Shown here in pieces: positions 19,001-32,062 of a stretch of 64,000 bases of DNA. The stretch lies in NCBI RefSeq assembly GCF_001677475.2, contig NZ_CP015229.1. One strand, written 5' to 3'. Position 1 is the stretch's first letter. The number at the start of each line of letters is the position of its first letter. This DNA is from Escherichia coli (GTDB lineage Bacteria > Pseudomonadota > Gammaproteobacteria > Enterobacterales > Enterobacteriaceae). Under the pieces are notes generated by a model. The model was not told where the DNA came from. It saw only the letters and a program-made list of their open reading frames with translations, and made no database searches. A program made the position numbers and the translations under genes.

Positions 19001-20737
19001 CGTGATGCGGCGGGCCGGCTCACGGCAAAGGAGACAGCCGATGGCCATACGGAATACGTCCATGATGCGGCAGACCAGCTACTGGAAATCCGCCGCCGAC
19101 GGTCGGATGCCGGGGAAACAGACGCACCGGAGATTATCCGTTTCAGTTACGACAGACTGGGGCGGATGCTGACCGAGGAGACGGCGCAGGGCGTCCTGAC
19201 CCATCAGTACGATGAACTCAGCAACCGGACAGCCACCACCTTTCCGGATGGCAGAACGCAGCGTCATCTGTACTACGGCAGCGGCCATCTCCAGCAGATA
19301 AATCTGGACCGGGAGGTCATCAGCGAGTTCACACGTGACGCCCTGCACCGGGAAGTGCTCAGAAGTCAGGGGCGACTGAGCACGCGGCAGCTTTATGACC
19401 CCGCCGGGCGGCTGAAGCGCAGGGAGACATACAGCGGGATGCGCGGGGTGGTACCGGAGACGTTCACGGACCGGCAGTACAGCTACAGCGGCGAGGATGA
19501 ATTGCTGAAGACGCGGCACAGCCGGCGGGGGGAAACGGATTACTTCTACGACCCCACGGGGCGCATCACGGCGTGCCGCTCGGAGGATGAGAGGTATCTG
19601 GCGAGCTGGCAGTACGACGCGGCGGGAAACCTGCTGGGGAGGCGCGCGGGGGAAAGGGCCACGGCAGAAAACAGCGTGGTGCCGTTCAACCGGCTGATGT
19701 CTTACCGTGGTGTGCACTACCGTTATGACGAATTTGGCCGGACGGTGGAAAAGGAGGGCCGGAGCGGCACGCAGAGTTACCGTTATGATGCGGAACACCG
19801 GATGGTGGAAGTGACGACAGCGCGGGGGACATACCGGTATGTGTACGATGCGCTGGGGAGGCGGACGGAAAAACAGCACATCAGCCCTGACGGTAAACCG
19901 TACAACCGGACGACATTTTTATGGGACGGAATGCGGCTGGCGCAGGAGAGCAGGCCGGAGGGAATAAGCAGCCTGTATATCTACAGCGACCCGGGGAGTT
20001 ATGAACCGCTGGCGCGGGTGGATAAGGCGGGCAAAGAGGGCCCGAACCGGATACTGTATTTTCACACGGATGTGAACGGTGCGCCGGAAGAGATGACGGA
20101 CAGTGACGGGAAAATCGTGTGGGAGACGGGGTATCAGGTCTGGGGTAACACGATACAGGAGAAGGACCACGGCGGGGTGGAGCAGAACCTGCGCTACCAG
20201 GGACAGTACCTCGACAGGGAAACGGGGCTGCATTACAATCTGCACAGGTACTATGATCCGGATGTCGGGCGGTTCATGGTAACGGACCCGATAGGGCTGG
20301 CGGGGGGACTGAATCTTTACCAATACTCACCGAATCCAATAAGTTGGATCGACCCGCTGGGATTAACAGGGGAGTGGGTTAATCCCAAAGATATTAATTT
20401 TTCTCAAAGAACAATATCACCTCATGATTATGCCGATATTATGCGTAATGGTGGTTGGGATTGGGACAGGTCTCCATTAAGAGTAATTGATATTGATGGG
20501 CAATTAGTTTCTTATGATAATAGGCGATTAGACGCAGCTCTAGAGGCCGGATTAGATAAGGTTAAAGTCATTAGAGTTGACCCTAATGCTCCTCATCCTG
20601 ACTCATCTACTGGAAAAACATGGTTACAAAAATTCCGAGAGAGATTTAGAGATCGAAGAAATATAAAGGCCGGTGGAATAGTACCAGATAAAGGATTAAA
20701 TTCTCGACCGGAAAGAACATCAAGAGGTTGCAAATGA
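16055..20737 (+). CDS. Rhs-family polymorphic toxin: prePAAR motif, hydrophobic segments, PAAR-like motifs, YD-repeat core, C-terminal toxin (about 20363..20734)
   Basis: 1560-aa ORF; N-terminus AARQGDALLH (AARxxDxxxH) then hydrophobic stretch, INSKPAAR and INSQPAAR motifs, second hydrophobic stretch; many YD repeats; core ends [40 protein letters not shown] followed by a 124-aa variable tail. Confidence 0.9.
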   Translation: MEEAFWAARQGDALLHTSFMADVLGAVVEVAATALVDVLVVGTMAALGGVEVATLGCSTILAIGIATAVFMSYQGWNDRISRESEQLANWLFPPQIEGYILTGSGDTWINSKPAARAAATAASRQDIEAQEAQAKAEQEEAQRQEDARTFLDVAGEYLEMAGAIALAVNPVTGPVLMSRALHDQLSTEEGRSEMVDGVTHFVSELWQPTVASAAPGSTPTPDDKIDCHKHPSSLTQFLAQKKAAFLDDPLGTALNLLSPGGMLETAFQGVNAVIGSISNLFKGDDEPPAAEYIAEGARDVRINSQPAARSGARCTCEARVVNEPGNGAFVSPDVRIGGPLLVVRDIRSGRSQITLVATVALMFLRPGKMLSKIACFAASVGMGVMTQKAISALPHPVNAATGAKYLADDDDFDFSLPGHFPLDWQRVYSSRDDRTEGMFGQGWSVMYEVSLERTPGTADENCMTFVSGMGRRLDMEAVLPGSGFYSPGEGLAVRRGEQGHWLISSDDGQFFLFEADPRHPQRQRLKMLGDRNSNCLNLYYDELGRITQISGEQQRPCIRLHYELAAHPRRVTQIYQHFPEMAPLLLRRYRYDEAGDLNGVYDSTGHLLREFAYDENHCMTLHRQPGGEGYYYQWGWYEGPDDAAWRVTGHHTDSGEQYRLAWSLAARRLCVTDGLGRTRYHQWDAQNQVTAYQDEAGQVTTFRWSDEERLLLGMTDAQGGKWRYVYDRQGHITETHDPLGRVAQTQWHPVWHQPETEVDAAGNSWCCEYDERGNLLAVTDPLQQNTRYQYDRHGQVVQITDARGGNKYLQWNEDGQLMRHTDCSGSQTAWFYDERTRLIRMTDAQSHSTRYGYDDSGHLTEVILADGRTVNYQSDAAGRLVKYTSPMGRITRWQRDGQGRVRSRTDATGRRTAFGYDAYGRLVTLTNENGESYRFRHDVLDRLAEQINPDGCRQTYRYNALNAVTEVVFTGDRGGEIRHRLARDAAGRLTAKETADGHTEYVHDAADQLLEIRRRRSDAGETDAPEIIRFSYDRLGRMLTEETAQGVLTHQYDELSNRTATTFPDGRTQRHLYYGSGHLQQINLDREVISEFTRDALHREVLRSQGRLSTRQLYDPAGRLKRRETYSGMRGVVPETFTDRQYSYSGEDELLKTRHSRRGETDYFYDPTGRITACRSEDERYLASWQYDAAGNLLGRRAGERATAENSVVPFNRLMSYRGVHYRYDEFGRTVEKEGRSGTQSYRYDAEHRMVEVTTARGTYRYVYDALGRRTEKQHISPDGKPYNRTTFLWDGMRLAQESRPEGISSLYIYSDPGSYEPLARVDKAGKEGPNRILYFHTDVNGAPEEMTDSDGKIVWETGYQVWGNTIQEKDHGGVEQNLRYQGQYLDRETGLHYNLHRYYDPDVGRFMVTDPIGLAGGLNLYQYSPNPISWIDPLGLTGEWVNPKDINFSQRTISPHDYADIMRNGGWDWDRSPLRVIDIDGQLVSYDNRRLDAALEAGLDKVKVIRVDPNAPHPDSSTGKTWLQKFRERFRDRRNIKAGGIVPDKGLNSRPERTSRGCK

Positions 20738-21168
20738 AAAATATTATTCAGTTATGGGAAGATGGTTTATTACCGATAAAAGATGCTATTTACTTTTCTA
20801 ACGGTGAATCTTTCCTTTGTAAAATAACATCTTACCCTACTCCTTGTATTGAGAAAAATGGTGAGTTTGATTTCTCTGCCTTTTATGAAAAAAATAAAGA
20901 TGAAGTTACTGATATTGATAAGTCTAGAGAAGTTAAATTAGCGAATAATTGCTATTGTTGCATTGGAGAAGGTAGTTATGGTTCTGAAGGATTTATCGCA
21001 TATCTCGATGAAAATAAAAACTTAGTTTGGGTTCTTTATTCCGAAGAATCTAATCCATTTATTAATATAACTGAATATACATCTGATATTATTATAGTAG
21101 AATCAAGTTCTAATATTAGACTAAGAATAAATATAAACAATCCAGTGGATTTAGAATTGGCATTTTAA
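20734..21168 (+). CDS. putative Rhs immunity protein for the main C-terminal toxin (144 aa)
   Basis: ATG overlaps the rhs stop (ATGA); sharp drop in GC relative to the rhs core; position immediately after the toxin; no recognisable domain. Confidence 0.7.
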   Translation: MKNIIQLWEDGLLPIKDAIYFSNGESFLCKITSYPTPCIEKNGEFDFSAFYEKNKDEVTDIDKSREVKLANNCYCCIGEGSYGSEGFIAYLDENKNLVWVLYSEESNPFINITEYTSDIIIVESSSNIRLRININNPVDLELAF

Positions 21169-21171
21169 ATA

Positions 21172-21208
21172 AAAAGCCGGGTGAAATTAAATCTTCCCGG
21201 CTTTTTTA
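21172..21208. terminator. intrinsic terminator closing cassette 1 (repeat-family hairpin)
   Basis: AAGCCGGG…CCCGGCTTTTTTATT; the same hairpin recurs after each immunity gene at about 25.8, 28.4 and 30.8 kb. Confidence 0.7.
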
Positions 21209-21212
21209 TTAT

Positions 21213-30902: not shown

Positions 30903-31136
30903 TTAACTCTCGTTCAGTACACTAAATATCCCGTCACGCATACCCTTAACCACCTGTTTAACCTGATAAAGTTCCCTGCGCAGTTCCTGTACTTCGTTGT
31001 TATCTGCAAGCAGGATCTGGCAGCCTTCCGAGATCTTCACGGTAACGCCCGTGCCGATCTCAAATCCCGCTTCTCTCAGCCATTTTGCGCTGATTTTGAT
31101 TACCGGCGTGTCGCTGCGGTTGGGCAGATAACCCAC
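30903..31136 (-). CDS. SymE-family protein, copy 4 (77 aa)
   Basis: MGYLPNRSDTPVIKISAKWLREAGFEIGTGVTVKISEGCQILLADNNEVQELRRELYQVKQVVKGMRDGIFSVLNES. Confidence 0.6.
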   Translation of the reverse strand: MGYLPNRSDTPVIKISAKWLREAGFEIGTGVTVKISEGCQILLADNNEVQELRRELYQVKQVVKGMRDGIFSVLNES

Positions 31137-31329
31137 GGTACAGTGGCGCTGTGTTTTGGAAATGATATTTTTGTATTTAACCTGCTGATTAGATAGTAAA
31201 ATAAACTTCGTGCAGATAGCTTACTTTATCAGGGTGTGGCGGTAGCGTATGAACTATGATGCGGTGGTTTCAGGAATGTACGTACAAAATCGATAGTACG
31301 ATCCTCCAATCAGGTAGATTTGCTGCCCT

Positions 31330-31734
31330 GATCCGATAGGGCTAAGAGGCGGGCTGAACCTGTATGCTTATGCGCCTAATCCGCTGAAATATATTGATCC
31401 ACTCGGATTAAAAAAAGAGCTCTGTAATGGAACTACTCGTGTGCGGCATTATACTAATCGTAAAGGTTCAAATGCGATTGCTGAAAGTGGGATAATTAAG
31501 GCGCATGATAACGGTCGTGTATATTTGGAACCTGCGAATAAAAAACCACTCAGTCAAGTAGACATAGAGGCGAAATATCAAATAGGTCGTGGGAAAGGTA
31601 GAGATTATGTGGATACAGATGTATCTAACGAGCAATTAGAGTGGGTAACAAACCCTCGATATCATATAGATGAATTGACTGTGAAAGGTGATATTATTCT
31701 TTCTGAAAATGCAAAAATAACTCGGCGTAAATAA
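31330..31734 (+). CDS. orphan Rhs C-terminal toxin cassette D (starts at the DPIGL core tail; no ATG, in-frame GTG at 31441)
   Basis: In-frame DPIGLRGGLNLYAYAPNPLKYIDPLGLKKELCNGTTRVRHYTNRKGSNAIAESGIIKAHDNGRVYLEP…; frame opens after a stop at about 31315. Confidence 0.65.
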   Translation, partial: DPIGLRGGLNLYAYAPNPLKYIDPLGLKKELCNGTTRVRHYTNRKGSNAIAESGIIKAHDNGRVYLEPANKKPLSQVDIEAKYQIGRGKGRDYVDTDVSNEQLEWVTNPRYHIDELTVKGDIILSENAKITRRK

Positions 31735-31735
31735 T

Positions 31736-32062
31736 ATGAATAAAAACAATGATGTAATTAATATACCCGGAAAGGATGCCCTTTATATTCTAAGTGAGGT
31801 AGAGTACATATTGATATCACTTAAGAATATTGCAAGGTATTATTTCAATGGTATAGAACAGAACGTTATTGATGATAAATTGTTGAATTCTTACTTTAAA
31901 GAAACCACTAAATTTATTGATGATAAAAATATTACACATCGATTGGCTGAAATAAGAAGGGTTATTACTGAAAATTTTAATACTGATCTTGGAGATGATG
32001 ATATGGATGATATTGAGAGAGAAATAGAAAAGATAAAATGTTGGGAGAAGCCGGGTGATTAA
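31736..32062 (+). CDS. putative immunity protein for orphan toxin D (108 aa)
   Basis: AT-rich ORF starting 2 bp after the toxin stop; acidic C-terminus. Confidence 0.65.
   Translation: MNKNNDVINIPGKDALYILSEVEYILISLKNIARYYFNGIEQNVIDDKLLNSYFKETTKFIDDKNITHRLAEIRRVITENFNTDLGDDDMDDIEREIEKIKCWEKPGD

Follow-up and report, generated by a model that had tools for sequence, protein, structure and literature searches.

The region downstream of the main rhs gene in a 64,000-nucleotide window of the Escherichia coli contig NZ_CP015229.1 (assembly GCF_001677475.2; all positions below, unless assigned to another record, are those of this window) is a mosaic in which codon-level base composition, a base-precise breakpoint and population data agree, making it a clean example of toxin/immunity cassettes rich in adenine and thymine (AT) whose histories appear separate from that of their delivery scaffold, which is rich in guanine and cytosine (GC). 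We are confident that it represents the downstream part of a type VI secretion (T6SS)-type Rhs toxin locus, built by repeated displacement of the C-terminal toxin tip. In such systems the Rhs core forms a shell, an aspartyl protease cuts at a DPxGL motif and thereby releases the tail, and the adjacent immunity protein protects the toxin producer. The architecture of a tail followed by an immunity gene occurs five times (Table 1), the toxin and immunity roles being predicted; each cassette is bracketed by conserved DNA of normal or high GC, and the four older ones, downstream of the main gene, are silent orphans. The point worth carrying forward is that the GC-rich block between 21.5 and 25 kb, which is not Rhs DNA, looks like what is left of the carrier that brought in the current tip.

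Composition was scored against the 27 housekeeping open reading frames (ORFs) of the window, which have a GC of 0.528 (sd 0.037) and a synonymous-site GC (GC3s) of 0.545 (sd 0.050). Rhs cores lie above this baseline (GC 0.617 and 0.616; GC3s 0.72–0.75, z = +3.5 to +4.0), as they do at codon positions 1 and 2 (GC1 0.64, GC2 0.47), and the cassettes lie far below it: GC is 0.37–0.46, GC3s 0.18–0.29 and z –5.0 to –7.3 for the five tails, GC 0.25–0.35, GC3s 0.12–0.24 and z –6.1 to –8.4 for the five immunity genes, and GC 0.34–0.38 for whole cassettes of linker, tail and immunity gene. The block at 21543–25005 has a GC of 0.618, its final 910 nt reaching 0.669 with 300-nt peaks of 0.72. The original prediction, made by eye, that the Rhs core and this block are GC-rich and that every immunity ORF and most toxin tails are AT-rich is therefore borne out by sliding-window GC and codon usage, which are not uniform across cores, tails and immunity genes, and for the tails it is exceeded, all five being AT-rich by GC3s. 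Its picture of AT-rich genes embedded in Rhs core DNA holds only in part, as the cassettes do lie in GC-richer DNA but the surroundings are not mainly core; 20734–32062 is made up of 30.9% cassettes, 30.6% primase/XerC remnant, 12.3% Rhs core, 11.9% symE-like units and 11.5% ISAs1. The step changes that it placed at the DPIGL junction are real, since likelihood change points at 20312 and 30101 fall 13 and 9 nt past the last DPIGL base (20299 and 30092), with a twofold log-likelihood gain (2dLL) of 29–115 against a shuffle maximum of 16.9. Strong GC steps occur in 43 of 176 sliding windows inside the locus and in 16 of 431 outside it; single steps are thus not peculiar to the locus, and AT-rich intergenic regions elsewhere give them too. 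Stretches of ~32–33% GC at 6401–6900, 48801–49300, 50651–51050 and 62451–63050, which look intergenic or regulatory, produce steps of similar size and served as background for the step statistics.

The breakpoint itself is located by the orphan core fragment at 28704–30092, the sole true Rhs core DNA within 20734–32062. It is identical to the main gene (18911–20299) at 1375 of 1389 positions (99.0%) through the last DPIGL base, whereas the 22 codons past this point encode nearly the same peptide with DNA that is identical at just 48 of 66 positions (73%), and past DPLGL there is no alignable similarity. By this alignment the DNA breakpoint is DPIGL (amino acid (aa) 1411 of the main Rhs protein) and the protein-level boundary, the autoproteolytic site, lies 22 residues further on, at DPLGL (aa 1433). 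Linker GC3s is 0.27–0.48 compared to 0.71 for the last 22 core codons; the protein of linker 1 is conserved, yet its DNA is already that of the incoming cassette. The orphan 28704–30518 has 1.39 kb in common with the main gene at 99% identity, enough for homologous recombination that could put it in place of the current tip.

If the low GC of tails and immunity genes merely mirrored the makeup of small proteins rich in Lys, Asn, Ile and Glu, no separate history would be needed. Immunity genes do have a low GC at codon position 2 (0.19–0.31), which explains why they are AT-richer than the tails, and the higher total GC of the tails arises at codon positions 1 and 2. However, synonymous-site GC drops from 0.72–0.75 in the cores to 0.12–0.29 in the cassettes, the 22-codon linker retains its protein but moves to AT-rich codons, and the same tail/immunity pair is found at a GC of 0.66–0.68 in Streptomyces (see below), so that this explanation is already contradicted and hardly credible. 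At synonymous sites tails and immunity genes have a common composition, so that the two visible steps (core to tail and tail to immunity gene) amount to a single step in codon usage.

Five 85-nt repeats coding DPIGL-x22-DPLGL (family D4; 20284, 25005, 26263, 30077 and 31329) mark the five tail starts, and three kinds of DNA adjoin them on the left: intact core (the main gene and the orphan at 28704), a decayed core vestige (linkers 3 and 5) and non-Rhs insert DNA (linker 2). The 136-nt spacers ahead of linkers 3 and 5 were considered as scars of deleted elements and rejected as such, as alignment identifies them as decayed core 3′ ends. In the main gene the ATG of immunity gene 1 (20734) overlaps the rhs stop (ATGA). 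Searches of Pfam, NCBIfam and PDB sequences gave no match for tails 1–4 or any immunity protein, while tail 5 matched Pfam Tox-ART-HYD1 (1.9e-14). All tail and immunity ORFs are intact save tail 3, which is broken by an insertion sequence (IS) of the ISAs1/ISEc1 family (transposase matches of 9.5e-34 and 2e-30) with a 10-bp target duplication, GGGGAAATCC, at 26367–26376 and 27668–27677; the uninterrupted tail with its empty target is present in strain 104. Scans for promoters (19 promoter-like sites versus 15.9 expected) and terminators (one conserved hairpin alone within the loop limit) were uninformative. That four of the five cassettes are orphans, and that the core vestiges ahead of linkers 3 and 5 are visibly decayed, would fit a model in which AT-richness results from the decay of silent cassettes under AT-biased mutation after their displacement. 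In such a model the attached and intact cassette 1 should not be equally AT-rich (GC3s 0.18 and 0.15 for tail and immunity gene), nor would the ORFs be intact, tail 3 having been lost to ISAs1 and not to point decay, nor the cassettes 93–98.5% identical to main-tip copies of other strains; we consider it very improbable.

Prevalence in 5,426 complete E. coli genomes differs widely between the parts of the locus. Cassette 1 is present in one genome, strain A34, at the same locus and in a minimal rhs-immunity-symE-ybgA arrangement; cassette 2 in 21–35, cassette 3 in 45, cassette 4 at full length in one, cassette 5 in 72 (98.5% identity) and the core N-terminus in 208. Other E. coli strains have cassettes 2, 3 and 5 attached to full-length genes of the ‘RHS repeat-associated core’ type; strain 104 carries cassette 3 as its main tip and cassette 5 as an orphan, and lacks cassette 4 between otherwise collinear flanks. 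Compared to a Salmonella locus of pathogenicity island 6 (SPI-6) type, the core is 76% identical while cassette 1 and the start of symE are 88% identical. The housekeeping genes flanking the locus have best E. coli matches of just 95.8–96.8% identity (96.3–96.8% for phrB-dtpD, 34158–38640), which places the source in a somewhat divergent Escherichia lineage. The N-terminal rhs region (16055–17400) is 99.6% identical to the paralogous rhs at ansP/yncE-yddH of some E. coli strains, where the gene order is vgrG-DcrB-rhs-immunity-symE, and we seem to be dealing with a divergent lineage whose rhs core was recently exchanged. As both cassette 5 (98.5%) and the core N-terminus (99.6%) are nearer to E. 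coli than the housekeeping flanks are, both parts move.

The taxonomic distribution of tail 1 spans several phyla at differing GC, with relatives in Salmonella (98%), E. fergusonii, Serratia, Pantoea, Gibbsiella, Gilliamella, Streptomyces, Ruminococcus, Bacteroidales and Lysinibacillus, and a homologue of immunity gene 1 follows the tail collinearly in Salmonella (87.5% aa identity), Serratia (51%) and Streptomyces (34%). Tail and immunity gene have GCs of 0.40 and 0.29 in Salmonella, 0.41 and 0.38 in Serratia ficaria (host genes 0.63) and 0.68 and 0.66 in Streptomyces triticirhizae (host genes 0.76), where their GC3s is 0.80–0.85 versus 0.96 for host genes. The Streptomyces pair demonstrates that the proteins do not force a low GC; the enterobacterial copies are part of an AT-rich pool, and the pair lies below the host baseline in every host. 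The breakpoint, the patchy distribution, the displacement and the discordant divergence thus support the prediction that tips and immunity genes were acquired horizontally and apart from the core; composition by itself cannot prove transfer, but these independent tests agree with the horizontal reading, and population and phylogenetic evidence support histories of the cassettes separate from that of the scaffold.

The GC-rich insert contains, in order from the main core, what remains of a regulator of the helix-turn-helix (HTH) type, a primase and a XerC-like tyrosine recombinase, followed by a non-coding spacer. In the alignment to comparison locus L001 the match jumps from 13515 to 15707 of that locus, so that the rest of the HTH gene and the primase N-terminus (~2.2 kb) are deleted in the window; the intact HTH homologue matches Pfam HTH_3. 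About one third of the primase gene is left, 85–91% identical to the primases of L001, L009 and L069, and the intact protein of 987 aa combines a CHC2 zinc ribbon, DnaG_N, Toprim and a weak P-loop. The recombinase aligns by tblastn to the XerC of L001 in two frames, with Pfam Phage_integrase in both pieces. For NCBIfam NF002331 it scores 303.7 bits (cutoff 371), compared to 532.6 for the intact homologue of E. coli EC554, which together with the frameshift makes it a pseudogene of a member of this family. The spacer has no conserved frame, with patches of 90–97% nucleotide identity across genera, and no Rfam family matched it. A ‘hypothetical protein’ annotated in the EC554 spacer was rejected, as its match to the window keeps changing frame and no frame is favoured by tblastx across genera. 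Hairpins lie at 24131–24166, 24192–24257 and 24260–24353, the second of which has a Pectobacterium counterpart (L024 10155–10220) with different bases and the pairing kept; the spacer could harbour a replication origin, a primase loading site or a structured RNA. An inverted repeat at the junction of element and DPIGL codons, CCCTAT-GACCCG-ATAGGG, is partly conserved and has no core-side counterpart, and we make no claim for it.

Relatives of this element are found in at least ten enterobacterial genera and in two small circular records. E. coli EC554 (NZ_CP159917) has an intact element, with complete symE and primase genes, at the position that the insert occupies in the window, and strain R12 (NZ_CP066740) has one at its other rhs locus. 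The R12 backbone shows 85–92% identity to that of the window and bears an unrelated cargo, and its homology stops at window position 25019, within the DPIGL codons. Recombinase and spacer occur in 55 of the 5,426 E. coli genomes, and the element sits at two different E. coli rhs loci in a constant position relative to the rhs 3′ end. Relatives of the element end exactly at the DPIGL codons of their tail cassettes, which look promoterless.

The two circular records are the closest plasmid matches and neither holds a full rhs gene. One, of 8,758 bp from Shigella flexneri (L009), starts its order with primase, XerC and spacer, continues with a DPIGL linker and an IS-interrupted tail, and goes on through 483 nt of core to a further linker, tail and immunity gene, then symE and HTH. 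The other, of 11,289 bp from Lonsdalea populi (L010), carries two units, one having an HNH tail and the other an EndoNS tail with an NTF2 immunity protein, as well as DinJ/RelE, and has no Rhs core at all. In both circles the codons just ahead of DPIG are non-Rhs and contain stop codons. ISAs1 copies also interrupt the tail ~30–40 nt past DPLGL in the Shigella circle; that these represent the insertion seen in the window was rejected, as the insertion points (120 versus 112 nt past DPIGL) and the tails differ.

A wider scan of one genome per species added 58 loci from eight genera (Citrobacter, Dickeya, Pectobacterium, Serratia, Photorhabdus, Xenorhabdus, Brenneria and Samsonia), with the conserved order Rhs core, SymE (minus strand), HTH (minus strand), primase, XerC and element end. 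Where enough downstream sequence was available the conserved end was found in 20 of 22 loci, mostly 0.85–1.0 kb past XerC, and in most of these 20 a DPxGL linker follows directly, 0.93–1.03 kb past XerC. The 37 junctions of element end and DPxGL gathered from many genera include a Photorhabdus set in which the same 45-nt element end, without a single difference, precedes at least six different linkers that diverge right past GACCC. In the complete chromosome of Pectobacterium aroidearum L6 (NZ_CP065044; L024 4274–17764) a core is followed by two units and an old tail, forming a perfect tandem with a period of 6,705 nt, each unit running from linker, tail and immunity gene through symE and HTH to primase, XerC and spacer; L038, L040 and L059 resemble this arrangement. 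Several draft contigs start at GACCC, or just past the 12-mer GACCCGATAGGG, and stop at the element end, as expected from an assembly graph where the unit has two left and two right neighbours. Testing contigs for circularity gave no terminal overlap of 15 nt or more; contig L016 begins and ends with GACCCGATAGGG, which alone does not prove it circular. Two further observations concern the spread of the family: P. thracensis (strain DSM 15199 has intact elements) carries at least seven element copies in one chromosome, and a 3.1-kb contig (L011, JAEWTL010000003.1) of a ‘Bacillota’ metagenome-assembled genome carries a recombinase 99% identical to that of the E. coli element, probably as an Enterobacteriaceae contig that was mis-binned.

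Reading from the main core, the window has cassette 1 and the full-length symE gene, next the HTH remnant, the primase fragment and the XerC pseudogene, and last the spacer leading into the DPIGL codons and cassette 2. A circle recombining with the DPIGL codons of a resident rhs gene would yield exactly this order. Our judgement is evenly balanced on whether the insert is the decayed backbone of a ~6.7-kb plasmid-like element that had cassette 1 as its cargo and docks in frame at the DPIGL codons. It is likewise an even call that a widespread enterobacterial mini-element of this size replicates as a circle and integrates site-specifically at the GACCC of rhs DPIGL codons. In this model the circle would combine a cassette (linker, tail and immunity gene) with symE, the HTH gene, the genes of the primase-helicase-like protein and the XerC-like recombinase, and the spacer; primase and spacer would let it replicate. 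The XerC-like enzyme would catalyse integration at GACCC of the DPIGL codons in a resident rhs gene, and this event would fuse a promoterless new tail in frame to the resident core and push the previous tip, here cassette 2, downstream. We give equal weight to the element being, and not being, the long-postulated episomal vehicle of Rhs tip exchange.

The alternative is that the insert is an unrelated passenger, or one that targets symE, and that tips arrive by RecA-dependent recombination through core homology as in the model of Jackson et al. (2009), with XerC resolving multimers. Such a role for core homology is consistent with the 1.39 kb of core borne by orphan 4, with the core fragments of L009 (483 nt) and L052 (580 nt) and with A34, which has cassette 1 in the absence of the element, and direct symE repeats could excise circles by homologous recombination. 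If the insert were a passenger, however, its end should not adjoin DPIG codons at 37 junctions in many genera, identical ends should not be joined to linkers that diverge right past GACCC, the tails of the circular records should not start at DPIG with stop codons upstream, and the element should not lie at the same place relative to the rhs 3′ end at both E. coli loci. We regard this alternative as rather less likely than not.

The GC mosaic is itself a property of the element family. Cargo has a GC of 0.32–0.46, primase 0.57–0.63, recombinase 0.59–0.64 and spacer 0.59–0.67, with host flanks at ~0.42–0.55, so that the contrast between cargo and backbone (~0.37 versus ~0.60) is held within one mobile unit in seven genera, irrespective of host GC. 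This conservation would be expected if the contrast were not a signature of the donor but were kept by selection, with AT-richness serving H-NS-type silencing of orphans or supplying their own promoters, and with the Gly/Arg/Asp/Tyr repeat code keeping the core GC-rich. The Streptomyces pair, GC-rich yet below its host genes, and the core GC1 and GC2 in excess of background point the same way. Selection gives no account, however, of the patchy distribution, the discordant divergence and the abrupt break in the DNA, all of which call for recombination with foreign sequence, and as the full explanation we hold it to be unlikely. It is compatible with horizontal exchange, but as a GC contrast can be stable within one mobile unit, a GC step alone becomes weaker evidence of exchange and of separate origin.

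Several points weigh against our reading of the locus as displaced foreign tips delivered by the element. Composition cannot date or direct a transfer, part of the GC contrast may be upheld by selection such as silencing of AT-rich DNA and not by donors, and since the core is atypical in the opposite direction and was itself exchanged, a model of a native core with foreign tips is too simple. The window copy is deleted and frameshifted, so its own action here cannot be shown, and E. coli A34 has cassette 1 and symE without the element, a state to which deletion between symE copies could have led. The core fragments of L009 and of X. japonica L052 would permit RecA-dependent integration, the two small ‘plasmids’ could be assembly products, and the evidence for the vehicle reading comes from sequence records.

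Four symE-like units of ~300 nt (family D1; 21203–21542, 25827–26126, 28443–28742 and 30893–31192) lie on the minus strand, one directly 3′ of each of the first four immunity genes; IS fragments, not symE, come next after cassette 5. The copy adjoining the element, the only one of full length, scores 42.5 of 132 bits for the NCBIfam SymE equivalog and is therefore a relative and not the K-12 orthologue (in K-12, symE is tied to the SOS response), and the remnants match Pfam SymE_toxin at 1e-9 to 4e-11. The hairpin GCCGGG..CCCGGC + T6 recurs at 25798–25831 and 28419–28447, so that it precedes three of the four units, and marks the right edge of the AT-rich cassettes. Antisense to the symE-like ORF, Rfam isrA, a family of Salmonella island-encoded Hfq-binding small RNAs (sRNAs), matches at 21343–21471 (plus strand; 107.5 bits, gathering threshold 51), with weaker copies at 25967–26050, 28583–28683 and 31033–31116, and a SymR-like match at 21537–21611 (39 bits) stays below the gathering threshold of 61. 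The Shigella sRNA Ssr1 gives partial matches that reach from the end of the immunity gene across the hairpin to symE. The symE units of Rhs loci may be the common source of the isrA, SymR and Ssr1 sRNAs. An opposite-strand symE after the immunity gene recurs in the Salmonella SPI-6-type locus (L005), Serratia ficaria (L007), Pectobacteriaceae loci and the small circles, where it may serve addiction, regulation or as a recombination anchor.

At the left edge of the GC-rich block, marked by a GC step from 0.305 to 0.595 at 15845, a remnant of a chaperone gene (C-terminal 66 aa) sits behind a stretch of ~30% GC, both lying within 15053–16036. It matches Pfam DcrB with 25.3 bits (profile positions 77–126 of 127), under the cutoff of 27.2, and intact 453-nt chaperone genes occupy the equivalent place in loci L001, L002 and L004. 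There is no vgrG upstream of rhs in the window, and chaperone and spike for the main toxin may be encoded elsewhere, or the toxin may not be deliverable. The main Rhs protein matches Pfam RHS_repeat (3.3e-80, 11 stretches), RHS (PF03527, 9.7e-15) and DUF6531, and partially a PAAR motif (34.1 bits). At the other end an IS256 fragment and a truncated ISAs1 (32128..33576) close the array ahead of ybgA, a pair that also lies 3′ of cassette 5 in strain 104. Between phrB and dtpD there is an IS3-family element (35663–37020), which matching genomes annotate as IS1397-like.

Table 1. Features of the rhs locus and its downstream array, in window coordinates.
Feature	Position	Strand	GC	GC3s	Remarks
Escherichia rhs locus					flanked by kdpFABC/ybfA on one side and ybgA/phrB on the other
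DcrB/EagR-type chaperone gene remnant	15836..16036	+			upstream of rhs
Main rhs gene	16055-20737	+			1,560 aa
Main Rhs core	16055..20299	+	0.617	0.724	PAAR/DUF6531 and YD repeats, through DPIGL codons (20285-20299)
Linker 1	20300..20365	+		0.48	22 codons to DPLGL motif
Toxin tail 1	20366..20737	+	0.387	0.178	123 aa
Immunity gene 1	20734..21168	+	0.279	0.154	144 aa
Conserved hairpin	21176..21207				GCCGGG..CCCGGC + T6; between immunity gene 1 and symE
symE-like gene, full length	21213..21542	-	0.539		109 aa; Pfam SymE_toxin 6.1e-20
HTH (Cro/CI-type) regulator gene, 3′ remnant	21543..21764	-			blastn to L001 13294-13515
Primase gene, C-terminal fragment	21763..22861	+	0.62	0.77	
XerC-like tyrosine recombinase pseudogene	23066..24095	+	~0.61	0.72-0.79	frameshift near 23700
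Spacer, non-coding, hairpin-rich	24096..25005	+	0.669		910 nt; conserved end 24936-25005 (70 nt) abuts DPIGL codons
DPIGL codons and linker 2	25006-25086	+			codons upstream are element DNA, not Rhs
Orphan tail 2	25087-25515	+	0.457	0.271	
Immunity gene 2	25527..25790	+	0.250	0.120	87 aa
symE-like remnant 2	25827..26126	-			5′-truncated; 77 aa ORF; Pfam SymE_toxin 4.1e-11
Decayed core vestige ahead of linker 3	26127-26263	+			alignment
DPIGL codons and linker 3	26264-26344	+			then first tail 3 codons to 26376
ISAs1/ISEc1-family IS inside tail 3	26377..27667	+			transposase 26521-27657; Pfam DDE_Tnp_1_assoc, DDE_Tnp_1
Tail 3, remainder	27668-27993	+	0.416	0.233	
Immunity gene 3	28011-28391	+	0.346	0.240	
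symE-like remnant 3	28443..28703	-			80 aa ORF; repeat family D1, Pfam
Orphan Rhs core fragment	28704..30092	+	0.616		1,389 nt; DPIGL codons at end
Linker 4	30093-30158	+			cassette 4
Tail 4	30159-30518	+	0.436	0.293	
Immunity gene 4	30531-30815	+	0.277	0.132	
symE-like remnant 4	30893..31192	-			77 aa ORF; repeat family, Pfam
Decayed core vestige ahead of linker 5	31193-31329	+			alignment
DPIGL codons and linker 5	31330-31410	+			cassette 5
Tail 5	31411-31734	+	0.373	0.226	HYD1-type ADP-ribosyltransferase
Immunity gene 5	31736-32062	+	0.287		
IS256-family transposase fragment	32128-32583	-			Pfam Transposase_mut
Second ISAs1 copy, truncated	32598-33576				repeat families D3, D5, D6

The mosaic itself is already known, belongs to textbook Rhs biology and adds little. 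The pertinent passages of Jackson et al. (2009; BMC Genomics 10:584, PMC2935791) sum up work of the Hill laboratory in the 1990s on a G+C-rich core with an A+T-rich core extension, and describe a GC trough that runs on downstream, with dissociated tips, and orphan fragments delimited by GC peaks. According to the same passages, orphan tips keep core fragments of variable length and a tip attached in one strain is dissociated in another; episomal circles formed by homologous recombination between core copies are postulated there and their origin is called unknown. The E. coli ‘position 4, clade IV’ locus of that account, which may be the present one, likewise shows displacement with dissociated tips. 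The mosaic is thus essentially identical, with the difference that here a specific primase/XerC backbone sits between tips. Main and orphan modules are likewise established (Poole et al. 2011, PMC3150448; Koskiniemi et al. 2014, PMC3967940), with a main rhs and orphan rhs-CT/rhsI demarcated by DPxGL. Salmonella switches toxins experimentally via the homology between main and orphan copies, and a toxin that is an orphan in one strain serves as the main toxin in another (PMC3967940). The shared core measures 522 bp at 95% identity in Salmonella and 1,389 bp at 99% here. Unlike these modules, the present array, known here from sequence, has five cassettes, three kinds of left junction and symE-like genes after the first four immunity genes.

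In the Vibrio cholerae T6SS, new effector-immunity pairs reportedly displace old ones and leave arrays of orphan immunity genes (Kirchberger et al., 2017). That system is set apart by a different effector scaffold, without an Rhs core, and to our knowledge no dedicated carrier element has been reported for it. Integrons offer a likeness in outline, as promoterless cassettes would be captured by a tyrosine recombinase at a fixed site downstream of a resident expression signal, each arrival taking the place next to the promoter and moving its predecessors further away. In contrast to integrons, the capture site would lie within a coding sequence and yield a protein fusion, and the recombinase is on the incoming element and not on the platform. 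Integron-integrase models score 52.9–119 bits against the recombinase, far under their cutoffs of 265 and 435; no attC-type sites turned up, though no dedicated search was made, and the cassettes are bounded by DPIGL codons and symE units. The comparison is one of functional analogy only, not of membership.

Recombinase-associated acquired interbacterial defence loci were reportedly described by Ross et al. in 2019 (Nature 575:224), and Martinkus et al. (2026, Curr Biol 36:176), known to us through a citing preprint, are said to link a Xer recombinase to Rhs poly-immunity arrays. Zhang et al. (2012, PMC3482391) found XerC/D genes adjoining poly-immunity loci and suggested a role in the accumulation of immunity genes. 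Our locus resembles these in having a XerC/D-type recombinase beside toxin-fragment/immunity arrays separated by conserved repeats, and differs in that the recombinase travels with a primase-helicase-like gene, HTH and symE as a ~6.7-kb unit. Literature searches, which did not cover the contents of Martinkus 2026, found no description of a primase-XerC-SymE unit as a carrier of Rhs tips; those that paired Rhs with SymE, XerC or primase brought up no more than brief remarks on symE close to T6SS/Rhs genes. As the link between Xer recombinases and Rhs poly-immunity is already reported, what may be new is confined to the site of in-frame docking, the backbone with its primase and the occurrence in episomal form. 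If the element does dock tails at DPIGL codons, both the vehicle and the site of Rhs tip exchange would be named, and it would be explained why symE-like genes litter T6SS/Rhs loci; in 2009 the formation of the postulated circular intermediate had been left open. With the element end fused to the DPIGL codons, integration would then not only add immunity genes, as in the poly-immunity loci, but also swap the expressed toxin in frame.

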